Shown here: positions 26,108-30,783 of the stretch, piece after piece
Layout: every line of letters starts with the position of its first letter
How positions within the stretch are numbered: position 1 is the first letter of the stretch
Source of the DNA: an uncultured Candidatus Binatia bacterium
GTDB lineage: Bacteria; Desulfobacterota; Binatia; Bin18
DNA length: 32,000 nucleotides
Direction of reading: 5' to 3'
Assembly: GCA_965220195.1 (NCBI GenBank)
Contig: CBDCPK010000005.1
Coordinates: forward strand, 664,717-696,716
Program-made: the position numbers and the translations under genes
The notes under the pieces: model-generated
Told to the model about the DNA's origin: nothing
Databases searched by the model: none
The model's input: only the letters and a program-made list of their open reading frames with translations

Positions 26108-27682
26108 ATGTTCGAACGAATATGGGTCCTATTCTTGAGCCTCGTGCTGCTGGGCGTATGGGGATGCTCGGCAACCCTCAGACGCCCCTCGGCCAAAGAA
26201 TATTATCAGCAGGCAACTGACTCTTTCACCGACGAGGACTATCTGGGAGCTTCCGATCAATACCAGGAGTTGCTGGATCAATATCCGCTCAACCCGTACG
26301 CTGAGGAAGCCCAGCTCAAAGCGGCCTATGCGTTGTTTATGGAAGAAAATTACGCCGAAGCCGTCGCCGCCTTTAAGGACTTTGAGCGGGCCTATCCGAC
26401 CAGTCGGCATATGCCGTTTGTCAAATATTTTCTCGGCATTACGAACTATAGCCAGATTCGCTCCAAGGATCGCGATCAGGCGGTCACACGCCGAGCGGAC
26501 GGGTTTTTTCAAGAGGTGATAGACCGCTATCCGGAAAGTGCTTTTGTCCTCGAGGCTGAGGAAAAGAGCAAATCGGCTCGGGACATCCTGGCGGCCCACG
26601 AATTGATGGTGGCGAACTTCAATGAGCAACGTGGCAATATTACCGCCACAAAAGCACGCCTGCGCAGCCTGATTGAGCAATACTCCGAGACCGACGCCAC
26701 AGAGGAAGCCTTGGGTCGGCTCGAACAGCTCTTGAACGAAGAGGGCAATGTCGAGTTGGCCGAGTTGGCGGCCCGCGCTCAGTCCGCACGGAGAATGAAT
26801 AGAGAGGCACCCAGCGCGGAAGAGGACAGCCCGGAGGACGAGGCGACCGGCTCGGGTGAGCTGCTCGTCGCTGGAGTCGATCCCTTGTTGCTGCTCGTTT
26901 CCGAATTGAAAAAACAGGAAGAGGCAGAACGCCTCGCCCGGACGGAAGCAGATGCGGAAAGGCTAGCGGCGGAAAAAGAGGCCGAGCAGGAAGAGCGCGC
27001 CCTGGATGACGCCTTTGACGATGACCGGTCCTACGAAGTGGGTGACGATTATCAGGAAGTAGACTTGGAGGCCTTGGAAGCAGAGCGGGCGGCCTTAGAG
27101 ACTCCCGACATTGAGGAACTGGAATTCGACGTTGAGACAGACGATCTCGGCCCCTTCGAACTAACCGAGCAGGACGTAAAGAGGGAACGTGTCCTTCCAT
27201 CAGCCAGAGATGCTGGACACGTTCCCTCTTTCTCCGACGGGGATGACATTGATCTTTCTGACGATGACATCCTCACCCTTGACATCGAGGACGACGCTAT
27301 TGCGCTTGAGGAAGATGCTGAAGCGTTGGAAGCCGCTGGGGTGTTGGACGCTGAAGAAGCAGCTGAGGATGTCGTTGAAGAGATTGCCGTAGGCGAGGAC
27401 ACGACCATAGACGATGAGGTTGAAGTCGGTACAGAGGTCGTCGAGGCAGAACCTGTCCTGAGCCCAGTCGAAGGGGAAGTCGAGGACGACGAAGCAATTA
27501 CCGCAGTCGAGCAGAGTGAGCCGGTTGAGCTGAGTGAGTCAGAGGTTGAATACACTGAAATAGATGGGGAAGCAGTCTCTTCTGACGCTCTCACGAACGG
27601 AGATGTCGCACTGAGAACCAGCAGAGAGGCCGTTCTGGGTATCGATATTGAGGAAATAGATTTTGAGTTTGAGGACGAATGA
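26108..27682 (+). CDS. bamD: BamD/YfiO-like TPR lipoprotein with a ~280-aa polyacidic C-terminal extension
   Basis: Has a signal peptide plus Cys (LLGVWGC) and a BamD-like TPR region (YYQQATDSF...YPLNPYAEEAQLKAAYALF...YPTSRHMPFVKYFLG...YPESAFV). The Asp/Glu-rich low-complexity tail runs from about 26830 to the stop. Confidence 0.7.
   Translation: MFERIWVLFLSLVLLGVWGCSATLRRPSAKEYYQQATDSFTDEDYLGASDQYQELLDQYPLNPYAEEAQLKAAYALFMEENYAEAVAAFKDFERAYPTSRHMPFVKYFLGITNYSQIRSKDRDQAVTRRADGFFQEVIDRYPESAFVLEAEEKSKSARDILAAHELMVANFNEQRGNITATKARLRSLIEQYSETDATEEALGRLEQLLNEEGNVELAELAARAQSARRMNREAPSAEEDSPEDEATGSGELLVAGVDPLLLLVSELKKQEEAERLARTEADAERLAAEKEAEQEERALDDAFDDDRSYEVGDDYQEVDLEALEAERAALETPDIEELEFDVETDDLGPFELTEQDVKRERVLPSARDAGHVPSFSDGDDIDLSDDDILTLDIEDDAIALEEDAEALEAAGVLDAEEAAEDVVEEIAVGEDTTIDDEVEVGTEVVEAEPVLSPVEGEVEDDEAITAVEQSEPVELSESEVEYTEIDGEAVSSDALTNGDVALRTSREAVLGIDIEEIDFEFEDE
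27178..27231. repeat. Palindromic ~55-bp element, copy 4 (inverted orientation, inside the bamD-like CDS)
   Basis: Sequence is AAAGAGGGAACGTGTCC TTCCATCAGCCAGAGATGCT GGACACGTTCCCTCTTT. The 17-bp arms are perfect. It is 54 bp long, which is 18 codons, and is read in frame as KRERVLPSARDAGHVPSF. Confidence 0.85.
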
Positions 27683-28430
27683 GACCGGGATCGCGCGCGT
27701 TTGTAAGGGGAAAGTCCTGGTAGTTGGTGTTGGCGGGCTGGGCTCTCCGGCGGCGTTTGCGCTTGCCCTAGCTGGGGTGGGAACGATCGGCCTGGTGGAT
27801 TCGGACTGTGTCGAGCTGTCAAACTTACAACGACAAATCCTGCACTTTACCCCGGATATTGGAAAGCCAAAGGTCGATTCGGCCAAGGAAAAAATTCAAA
27901 AACTTAACCCCTCGATAACAGTGGTGACCTATAACGAGTGGCTGCATGCGGCTAATCTCGCAGATATCTTTGCCGCCTACGATTTTATTGTTGACGGGAC
28001 GGACGGCGTGGCCACAAAGTTTCTGATCAATGACGGTGCCGTGCTGCTCAACAAACCACTCTCTCACGCTGGCATTGTCCAATTTCACGGTCAGGCATTG
28101 ACGGTCTTACCCCATCGGACGACGTGTTTGCGCTGCCTGTTCCCGGTCCCGCCTCATCCTGATGAGAATCCCACCTGCCAGGAGGCCGGTATCCTTGGCA
28201 GCCTAGCCGGCAGTCTGGGCGGCGTGCAGGCTGCCGAAGCTGTGAAATACCTGAGCGGAGCGGGGGAACTCCTGACCGACCGCTTACTGACCCATGACGC
28301 CCTGGCCTTACGCTGGCGAGAGGTCCGGGTGCGCCCCAGCCCGCACTGTCCGCTGTGCGGCACGCCGCGGACGATTACGGGCTTACAGCCCGAAGCTTAT
28401 GAGTTGGAAAGACTCTGCACTCCGGTCTGA
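27663..28430 (+). CDS. ThiF/MoeB-family E1-like adenylyltransferase (intact ATP loop, lacks the N-terminal RYxRQ helix)
   Basis: Has KVLVVGVGGLGSPAAFALALAGVGTIGLVDSDCVELSNLQRQ and two CxxC pairs (CLRC, CPLC). An in-frame TAG at 27657 prevents any longer N-terminus. The TTG start at 27663 is preceded by GAGGAA. Confidence 0.75.
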   Translation: MSLRTNETGIARVCKGKVLVVGVGGLGSPAAFALALAGVGTIGLVDSDCVELSNLQRQILHFTPDIGKPKVDSAKEKIQKLNPSITVVTYNEWLHAANLADIFAAYDFIVDGTDGVATKFLINDGAVLLNKPLSHAGIVQFHGQALTVLPHRTTCLRCLFPVPPHPDENPTCQEAGILGSLAGSLGGVQAAEAVKYLSGAGELLTDRLLTHDALALRWREVRVRPSPHCPLCGTPRTITGLQPEAYELERLCTPV

Positions 28431-28528
28431 ATGAAAATCGGGCAGGGTGATTGTCAGACCGGCGCAAAAACGTAACAGTAGAAGCTCGAAAGAGTAGATG
28501 AGTGATTCTGAATCAGGAGGGAGTGCAT

Positions 28529-29922: not shown

Positions 29923-30006
29923 CGGAGACAGTAGGGTCCGTTGGGTCAAGACTCAAGAGACCCCATAGACCCTACAGGCCCTATAGACCCTATAGACTCA
30001 AGAGAT

Positions 30007-30783
30007 ATGCTCGAAGACGCCCAGATCGAACGCTATAGCCGGCAGATTATTTTGCCCCAGGTCGGCGGGAGAGGGCAGGAAAAAATCCTTCGGAGTCGGG
30101 TGTATGTTGACGGGGACGGGCTGCTCACGGCAACGGCGCTCTTGTATCTCATCGCTGCCGGCGTTGGGACTATTGGCATTGCCCGGTCCAAGGCCGCTCC
30201 GGTCTTTTCCGCTCTTGCGGAGCAATCCCTCGAACCGGATGAGCAGCCTATGGCCCACACGCTCAGGCGGCTGAATCCTGATTGTACCATTGTGGTCCAT
30301 CCGGATGAGGGCGAACATCTGACCTATGATCTGGTTCTGGCCACAACAGATGCCCTGCACGATGAGTGGTACGCTCAGCACAAGCCGTTTGTGTGGGGGG
30401 CCATCAATGGGGAAGACGCCCGCTTATTCGTGAGTCGGGGTGACAAGGCTGACCGGCCCTGCCTGCGCTGTCTCTTCCCGGAAAACCCACCCCGGCCCCA
30501 TCGGGCCACCCCTCCGAGGAGGGGAGAGAAAACAGTCCCCTCTTGGGAGGGGTGCCGCGTAGCGGCGGGGTGGGTTCCTGCGGACACGGGGACCGCAGAC
30601 CCGCTTAATTCTCCATACGCGCTCTTTTTGGGTACCCAACTTGTCACCGAAGTCCTGAAAATCATCCTCCAGCCCGAGGCGGACGGCCAGCCAAAACTGC
30701 TAGCCTATACATTCCCGGCGTTTCACTGTACCGAGCAGACGGTTGAGAAGAATCCGCACTGTGCGGTCTGTGCGACTGATTGA
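30007..30783 (+). CDS. Degenerate ThiF/MoeB-like protein (keeps the N-terminal RYSRQ helix and CxxC pairs; glycine-rich ATP loop lost)
   Basis: Begins [32 protein letters not shown], then [27 protein letters not shown] in place of GxGGxG. There is no DxD..SNLxRQ motif. CLRC and CAVC are retained. A ~35-40-aa insertion follows the first CxxC. Confidence 0.6.

Follow-up and report, generated by a model that had tools for sequence, protein, structure and literature searches.

We analysed a stretch of 32,000 nucleotides (nt) from an uncultured Candidatus Binatia bacterium (GenBank assembly GCA_965220195.1, contig CBDCPK010000005.1, positions 664,717 to 696,716 of the forward strand; hereafter the window), which encodes two ThiF-like proteins with reciprocal defects on either side of a gene for a ThiS-like sulfur carrier. 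The first protein, referred to as open reading frame (ORF) 1, retains a complete nucleotide-binding site and has no N-terminal helix, whereas the second, ORF2, keeps this helix and has lost the nucleotide-binding site. This motif content is conserved throughout both families, and the two genes strictly co-occur. Based on these sequence features, we consider it probable that ORF1 and ORF2 make up an obligate asymmetric heterodimeric E1-like enzyme, in which ORF1 would adenylate the carrier and ORF2 would contribute its helix and arginine in trans. An arrangement of this kind had been put forward in a preliminary description of the same stretch, and that interpretation as a whole is partly supported.

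Two ThiF proteins with reciprocal defects

Both proteins belong to the ThiF/MoeB/HesA superfamily (Pfam PF00899), as judged by the domain match and the Rossmann-like E1 adenylation fold. Against the Pfam cut-off of 28.1 bits, ORF1 (27663..28430, + strand, 255 amino acids, aa) scores 242 bits (E = 5e-72) over profile positions 12-237, that is, with the profile covered only from position 12 onward, and ORF2 (30007..30783, + strand, 258 aa) scores 67.5 bits (E = 1.2e-18). Each protein is ~255 aa long, aligns with ThiF from end to end and has no extra folded domains. The NCBIfam models of MoeB, MoeZ, ThiF and UbaA remain below their cut-offs for both, the best scores being 281 bits for ORF1 and 95 bits for ORF2, in either case versus 449.

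The ORF1 protein (MSLRTNETGIARVCKGKVLVVGVGGLGSPAA...DSDCVELSNLQRQ) starts with TTG at 27663, and the sequence GAGGA is present at 27650-27654, 9 nt ahead of it. The only other in-frame start candidate is TTG at 27669. Direct reading of the sequence shows the in-frame TAG at 27657..27659 (+ strand) that bounds the frame upstream and that, as already pointed out in the preliminary description, blocks a longer ORF1. The same description placed the start of ORF1 close to the glycine loop, with no room for the N-terminal helix. The absence of the helix holds, and only the distance needs correction, as about 17-21 residues rather than ~10 precede the loop, the first glycine of GxGGxG being residue 22. 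The alignment with Escherichia coli ThiF (1ZUD) opens at residue 11 of ORF1, which corresponds to residue 24 of ThiF, and therefore Arg11 of ThiF is left without a counterpart in ORF1.

As the signature of catalytic competence we used the GxGGxG loop, the ribose-binding Asp, the Arg of SNLxRQ, the phosphate Lys and the Mg-binding Asp; the corresponding MoeB residues are G41, R73, K86 and D130 (PMC12355090). In ORF1, the nucleotide-binding loop GVGGLG occupies residues 22-27 (27726..27743, + strand), at positions that are invariant in the ORF1-family alignment (A5), and the nucleotide-site motifs VGVGGLG, VDSD, SNLQRQ, GKPKV and DGTDG are all present and invariant in the family. The zinc pairs CLRC and CPLC and the crossover motif PTCQEAG are found as well. 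By sequence, ORF1 thus has everything expected of a catalytically competent member of the ThiF/MoeB/HesA superfamily, and what sets it apart from the homodimeric type is the missing N-terminal RYxRQ helix. The best structural matches of its AlphaFold2 model (predicted local distance difference test, pLDDT, 83.7) are ThiF/MoeB chains, and on ThiF 1ZFN the root-mean-square deviation is 1.6 Å at 41% identity.

For ORF2, the start was set at ATG 30007 and not at TTG 29941, because the homologues all share the same N-terminal beginning. Its RYSRQ motif comprises residues 9-13 (30031..30045, + strand). Within this motif, R9, Y10 and R12 are invariant in the ORF2-family alignments (A2, A3 and A4) to ~30% identity, and R12 aligns with Arg11 of ThiF and Arg14 of MoeB. 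Along with the N-terminal helix, ORF2 has kept the zinc pairs CLRC (residues 152-155) and CAVC (residues 252-255). At the position of the glycine loop it reads GDGLLT (residues 36-41; 30112..30129, + strand). Also gone are the ribose-binding Asp (DxD), SNLxRQ, the Lys and the crossover cysteine, and the segment with DxxDN is deleted. The nucleotide-site positions now read VDGDGLL, IARSK and FSALAEQ, and by the signature given above ORF2 is not catalytically competent. The account of this protein in the preliminary description, namely an RYSRQ helix and both CxxC pairs combined with a degenerate loop and no SNLxRQ, was accurate in every part.

The AlphaFold2 model of ORF2 (pLDDT 85.3) has the ThiF/MoeB fold, with ThiF and MoeB chains as the best matches (template modelling scores of 0.72-0.77). 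It contains helices at residues 4-13 and 21-29, which are modelled with a confidence below that of the core, and residues 165 to ~200 are disordered. The low confidence of the N-terminal helix may fit a segment that packs against a partner, and it would also be usual for a protein terminus.

The crossover-loop region is hypervariable among ORF2-type proteins. In the window, this region carries a GC-rich in-frame insertion of ~90 nt (30485-30575), for which a very stable multi-hairpin fold is predicted (-83.4 kcal/mol, z = -6.85). The insertion is found in the most similar related locus, L081, in which ORF2 is 97% identical, and is absent from another, L082.

Conservation across the two families

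Whether the reciprocal pattern is an accident of the window was addressed by means of relatives, not by shuffling, and every relative that we examined turned out to show the pattern. R[YFW]xR[QHN] is matched by none of the 120 best ORF1 homologues (64-94% identity), whose glycine loop begins from about residue 20. Conversely, RYSRQ is found at residues 9-13 in all 120 best ORF2 homologues, while GxGGxG is found in none of them. When 82 degenerate, 47 short and 76 canonical ThiFs are aligned together, the reciprocal pattern recurs column by column. The short, ORF1-type proteins retain every catalytic motif; the ORF2 types keep the N-terminal motif in at least 95% of cases, and their DxD, SNLxRQ, Lys and DxxDN segments are lost or deleted. 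The reciprocal defects first noticed in the window are therefore real and conserved family-wide.

The degenerate type accounts for 68 of the best 150 matches in a search of 1.8 billion cluster representatives. In many distant degenerate ThiFs the whole stretch from AAGVG to LNPD is deleted, leaving a protein of ~220 aa. Across an alignment of 40 distant ORF2-type proteins, invariance is confined to R9, Y10, R12, G20, Q24, G52 and G54. Evolution is much faster in the ORF2 type than in the ORF1 type, with a mean within-family identity of 0.44 for ORF2 versus 0.71 for ORF1. The same tendency is apparent in a single comparison with a Binatia chromosome (L001), which is 69% identical to the window in ORF1, 80% in ThiS, 81% in CysM and 87% in CysD, and only 38% in ORF2. 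With all reading frames intact, ORF2 is, on this sequence evidence, under relaxed but real constraint.

These observations bear on an explanation by artefact or decay, according to which a frameshift in sequencing or assembly has shortened ORF1, or ORF2 would be a duplicate on its way to a pseudogene. The TTG start of ORF1 and its overlap with the end of the bamD-like gene could be read in this way, and so could the structured in-frame insertion in ORF2 and the loss of its catalytic motifs. However, the same short N-terminus recurs in 120 out of 120 best ORF1 homologues and in 12 independent loci from different assemblies. Reading the frame of ORF1 up to the previous stop in eight orthologous loci did not restore RYxRQ in any relative. 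As for ORF2, it has 2061 homologues with intact frames, and its motifs stay invariant across ~30-97% identity. Artefact or decay is thus highly improbable. In particular, a frameshift or a longer N-terminus of ORF1 was considered and rejected on account of the in-frame TAG and the upstream read-through in relatives. Of the findings that the preliminary description had named as damaging to its proposal, neither a frameshift hiding the helix nor the absence or decay of the second gene in close relatives was encountered, the latter gene being kept in all 13 loci of the pair described below.

Co-occurrence with the sulfur carrier

In 13 of 13 loci, over a range of ORF2 identity from 97% to ~30%, the ThiS gene lies between a short and a degenerate ThiF. 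In the loci reached from the ORF2 side (L081, L082, L083, L084, L001 and L085-L088), the short ThiF lies upstream of ThiS and the degenerate one downstream; in the loci reached from the ORF1 side (L089-L091), the degenerate gene is present in all three. For 19 further pairs of ORF1 and ORF2 proteins the longest listed contig is of identical size, suggesting that the two share a contig. As a control, we looked at loci with canonical ThiFs, defined by the presence of both helix and glycine loop. These were taken from profile scans of genome contigs (ORF2 alignment) and metagenome contigs (ORF1 alignment), in which the matches listed were nearly all canonical ThiFs, and they include ThiFs beside ThiS as well as the closest outside homologues of CysM (L002-L004 and L061). 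Among the matches listed, a degenerate partner was found in 0 of 159 such loci. Likewise, canonical ThiFs that adjoin ThiS-CysM in other lineages have no degenerate partner. The survey of co-occurrence suggested in the preliminary description thus agreed with its prediction, as did all else that could be tested on sequence data. Eight apparently 'short' ThiFs outside the clade were explained by regular-expression matches to strings of the GVGGKGQ type, by genes truncated at contig ends or by a TcdA-like protein, and their loci were counted as canonical.

The pair tracks the carrier and not CysM, and the constant unit is ThiF, ThiS and the second, degenerate ThiF. Two loci (L090 and L091) have no CysM and yet keep the short ThiF, ThiS and the degenerate ThiF together with a 426-aa threonine-synthase homologue. 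Such a threonine-synthase-like gene stands beside the ThiS gene in L083 and L089-L091. L083 has both pyridoxal-phosphate (PLP) enzymes (threonine-synthase homologue at 3129-4412), and an S-adenosylmethionine (SAM)-I riboswitch precedes its short ThiF (2138-2257, 82.6 bits); upstream of ORF1 in the window no riboswitch was detected at Rfam gathering thresholds. A 78-aa NIL-domain protein is part of the operon in L083 and L090. The threonine-synthase homologue passes the NCBIfam cut-offs for threonine synthase. MetM, a thiocarboxylate-dependent homocysteine synthase, is commonly misannotated as threonine synthase (bioRxiv 10.1101/2024.10.14.618325). The 426-aa homologue is probably MetM-like, and in these relatives the carrier system probably also feeds homocysteine synthesis. 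Downstream genes vary among loci, with cysD-cysNC in some and a sulfate symporter and an ATP sulfurylase in others.

Two further loci are worth mentioning. In a metagenome-assembled bacterium (L030, 193-3817), the order of genes is ThiS (with a tail after the diglycine, GG), ThiF, CysM and ThiF, both ThiFs being full-length and catalytically intact. This arrangement may illustrate how the genes were organised before labour was divided between two ThiFs. The metagenome-assembled genome (MAG) MKWU01 contributes a member of the 97% ORF2 protein cluster (P0241), and has on another contig (MKWU01000013.1; L119, 5887-6765) a gene for a full-length canonical ThiF/MoeB in which RYSRH is present and the glycine loop is intact. 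Consequently, the lineage has not lost the ordinary ThiF/MoeB.

Proposed mechanism and its alternatives

In the mechanism that we propose, ORF1 would be the subunit that binds ATP and the carrier and that adenylates the C-terminal glycine of the latter. ORF2, a catalytically dead paralogue of the same fold, would stand in for the second protomer found in the usual homodimer and would supply in trans, to the ATP bound by ORF1, the N-terminal helices that ORF1 has lost, including R12. The resulting acyl-adenylate of the carrier would be converted to a thiocarboxylate, with sulfur drawn from the products of the downstream sulfate-assimilation genes, and CysM would use the thiocarboxylate to make cysteine. 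In relatives, a MetM-like enzyme would use the same carrier to make homocysteine. We infer the formation of the heterodimer, the role of the helix in trans, the sulfur donor and the chemistry of the pathway from motifs, conservation and gene context.

Arg11 of ThiF and Arg14 of MoeB act on the ATP of the neighbouring subunit (PMC13139853), which backs the trans action assumed in the preliminary description. The eukaryotic heterodimers compared below provide precedents, and an arrangement like theirs is the simplest way to read the present data. The absolute constraint on the helix is hard to explain in a homodimer of ORF2, because in ThiF and MoeB this helix completes the ATP site of a neighbour and ORF2 itself is without an ATP site.

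There are several points that weigh against the proposed heterodimer. First of all, the arginine fingers of MoeB (Arg14) and ThiF (Arg11) are reported to be catalytically non-essential, and E. coli TcdA to work without the corresponding arginine (PMC13139853). Since the finger is reported to be non-essential, ORF1 could be active as a homodimer on its own. Both the heterodimer and the reach of the ORF2 arginine into the ATP site of ORF1 are predictions. ORF1 and ORF2 share only 28% identity on common columns, which is below the identity of either with canonical ThiFs. As to whether ORF2 arose by duplication of ORF1, the neighbor-joining tree and the identities were uninformative, the midpoint root being located among the fast-evolving ORF2-type proteins. 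ORF1 and ORF2 are not direct neighbours, as the genes for the carrier and for CysM lie in between. Pfam and NCBIfam reveal no rhodanese domain in either protein, and no rhodanese gene was found in the scanned rest of the window. Finally, in the window the carrier does not end with GG. These two residues are followed by a tail of 12 residues (SFCPRLATLGTP), which results from a 52-nt insertion (28802-28853) directly after the GG codons that has displaced the ancestral stop. The insertion occurs only in the window and in L081; the carrier of 11 related loci is 91 aa long and terminates with AIAGG followed by a stop. No match to a JAMM-family protease was found among the selected window ORFs of at least 120 aa that were scanned against Pfam. 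Because of the 12 additional residues and because no JAMM gene was found nearby, the carrier in the window may need a protease encoded elsewhere, or this particular operon may be impaired.

These considerations lead to the alternative that ORF1 is a self-sufficient homodimeric adenylyltransferase and ORF2 a conserved non-catalytic accessory of the same pathway, which might, for example, hold or hand over the carrier, form a bridge to a sulfur donor or the PLP enzyme, or have a regulatory function. Such a role would agree with the dispensable finger of MoeB and ThiF and its absence from active TcdA (PMC13139853), and also with ORF1 itself, in which the crossover Cys and the full set of cis catalytic residues are retained. 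In the ORF2 model, the zinc site and the well-folded core could bind other partners, and Cys93 of ORF2 (in RLNPDC) is near-invariant in the closer family. On the other hand, the residues of ORF2 that are invariant family-wide are those of the N-terminal helices, known in ThiF and MoeB to complete the ATP site of the neighbour, whereas the crossover-loop region is hypervariable. Cys93 gives way to V, I, A or S in distant members, its counterpart in canonical ThiFs being V or I; for the same reason, we rejected Cys93 as a catalytic persulfide cysteine. Loss of the helix from ORF1-type proteins is found only where ORF2 is present, as follows from the 13/13 and 0/159 loci (among the matches listed) described above. 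Taken together, we regard a self-sufficient ORF1 with an accessory ORF2 as possible but rather unlikely, and prefer the asymmetric heterodimer.

Comparison with known systems

The closest parallels to the ORF1/ORF2 pair are the eukaryotic SAE1(Aos1)-UBA2 for SUMO and NAE1(APPBP1)-UBA3 for NEDD8, in which two paralogous subunits of the MoeB/ThiF fold are encoded by separate genes and one of them is inactive, as would also be the case in our pair to judge from motifs and conserved co-occurrence. In these E1s, the N-terminal xYxRQ helix is retained by the inactive subunit, whose glycine loop is degenerate, and UBA2 begins ~16 residues before its glycine loop, much as ORF1 does. SAE1-UBA2 and NAE1-UBA3 are described as active/inactive heterodimers (PMC11354881). 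Unlike eukaryotic E1s, ORF1 and ORF2 are minimal (~255 aa each), with no catalytic-cysteine half-domains, no ubiquitin-fold domain and no E2, and they are proposed to act on a sulfur carrier that serves amino-acid synthesis, not on a protein modifier. Since they have neither Cys domains nor a ubiquitin-fold domain, the two proteins do not belong to the canonical E1 family; their pairing appears to work like the adenylation core of a canonical E1. The organism being bacterial, the arrangement probably arose independently of eukaryotic E1s.

A second parallel is provided by yeast Tcd1-Tcd2, a ThiF-type dehydratase heterodimer that forms cyclic N6-threonylcarbamoyladenosine (ct6A) and in which the inactive Tcd1 stabilises Tcd2 and gives the arginine finger Arg59 to its ATP site (PMC13139853). 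This is likewise a ThiF-domain heterodimer with one inactive subunit, as we propose for ORF1/ORF2. However, Tcd1-Tcd2 is eukaryotic, bound to the mitochondrial membrane, acts on tRNA and has extra C-terminal domains. Moreover, the ATP-type pocket of Tcd1 is preserved except for one arginine, whereas in ORF2-type proteins the nucleotide site has been lost or deleted in its entirety.

Among bacterial proteins, MoeB and ThiF (1JW9 and 1ZUD) and MoeZ of the Mycobacterium tuberculosis CysO-CysM pathway resemble ORF1 in fold, zinc site and adenylation motifs, and our pair has in common with the CysO-CysM pathway its genomic association with a ThiS-fold carrier and CysM. They differ in being symmetric homodimers, with a helix and an active site in every subunit, and MoeZ has a rhodanese domain in addition. 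The CysO-CysM label given to the cluster in the preliminary description fits only in part. A ThiS-fold carrier stands beside a CysM-type gene, but in the window and in L081 the carrier continues for 12 residues after GG, and for rhodanese and JAMM genes the scans of the window described above gave no match. BilD, the E1 of bacterial Bil/Bub systems, combines inactive and active adenylation domains into a pseudodimer (PMC11354881). It is thus bacterial, E1-like and asymmetric, as our pair would be, but it is a single polypeptide with a Cys domain that serves anti-phage ubiquitin-like conjugation and not a sulfur-carrier system. The MetM-MetO thiocarboxylate route to homocysteine (Hasebe et al. 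2024, summarised in bioRxiv 10.1101/2024.10.14.618325) uses MoeZ and the Mec protease. The relatives with a threonine-synthase-like gene beside ThiS resemble this route, as does L083 with its SAM riboswitch. The difference is that here the activator would be the ORF1/ORF2 pair, and the window has no MetM-like gene.

Our search of the open-access literature gave no report of a bacterial heterodimer that activates a sulfur carrier, nor did we find a curated family that describes the ORF1/ORF2 pair, the names given in the sources being those of generic ThiF/MoeB family proteins. Reviews present bacterial MoeB and ThiF as symmetric homodimers that represent the ancestral condition of E1 enzymes (PMC12355090), and the active/inactive asymmetry is treated as a trait of the canonical E1s of eukaryotes and of the Bil E1s of bacteria, in which the two domains are fused. 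Against this background, we lean slightly toward a broader view. A bacterial lineage, represented by MAGs labelled Candidatus Binatia and 'Desulfurellaceae bacterium', may have independently evolved a minimal E1 with separate active and inactive adenylation subunits that acts on a sulfur carrier and not on a protein modifier. It would then be a living example of the step from symmetry to asymmetry that is thought to underlie eukaryotic E1s, with the inactive subunit in some members reduced to little more than N-terminal helices and a dimerisation scaffold. If this is true, E1 asymmetry can arise without any conjugation machinery. Two proteins of ~255 aa would also be a very small system in which to ask what an inactive half and an arginine helix contribute, a question worth asking because the arginine is reported to be dispensable in MoeB and ThiF. 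At present both proteins are annotated generically as 'ThiF family adenylyltransferase' or 'MoeB', and because of this, reconstructions of pathways in these uncultured bacteria would overlook that one of the copies is, to judge from its motifs, catalytically dead.

Genes surrounding the pair

The genes around ORF1 and ORF2 all have the same orientation (+ strand). The ThiS/MoaD/CysO-like sulfur carrier (28529..28840, 103 aa, Pfam ThiS 3.6e-19), in which GG corresponds to residues 90-91, scores 65.7 bits with NCBIfam SAMP1 (cut-off 60) and also passes the MoaD_arch cut-off. It is followed by the CysM-type PLP cysteine synthase, which extends from either GTG 28861 or ATG 28912 to 29922 (Pfam PALP 5e-70). 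This enzyme passes NCBIfam cysKM (352.7 bits vs 344.15) and with 382.9 bits is just under the cysM cut-off of 394.2. Seventeen nt downstream of ORF2 begins cysD, encoding the small subunit of sulfate adenylyltransferase (30801..31748; NCBIfam CysD 535.5 bits vs cut-off 413). Its GTG start at 30801 was deduced from the 315-aa gene call in L081, the mechanically delimited ORF beginning at TTG 30780. In L081, cysNC lies downstream of cysD.

Upstream of ORF1 are ppk (23809-25938), one intact gene of 709 aa, and a gene for a bamD/yfiO-like lipoprotein (26108-27682). The latter protein has an extremely acidic low-complexity C-terminal extension of ~300 residues, and the last codons of the gene overlap the start of ORF1. 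In 13 of 13 loci, the immediate upstream neighbour of the short ThiF is a bamD gene. Most of the remaining sequence of the window is taken up by a phosphate regulon.

The window also contains a family of palindromic repeats of ~56-66 nt (AAAGAGGAAACGTGTCC...GGACACGTTTCCTCTTT), with copies at 23244-23299, 25945-26010, 27166-27233 and 28872-28934. Two of them are intergenic, one is located in the acidic tail of the bamD-like gene and one in cysM. The copy in cysM amounts to an in-frame insertion of 22 residues near the 5' end of the gene, which according to DNA alignment is absent from L082-L084. Several other proteins of the window are overlong, namely two Pst permease-like proteins of 569 and 777 aa (5257-6966 and 6926-9259) and a class-III aminotransferase of 772 aa (17206-19524). 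Their Pfam matches are partial, and in-frame insertions like those in cysM and ORF2 are a possible cause. Upstream of ppk there is a direct repeat of 87 nt in two copies (23438-23524 and 23605-23691), which are 89% identical and 167 nt apart. In L081 (1-1936), ppk is called as two overlapping genes (465 and 244 aa), suggesting a frameshift there.

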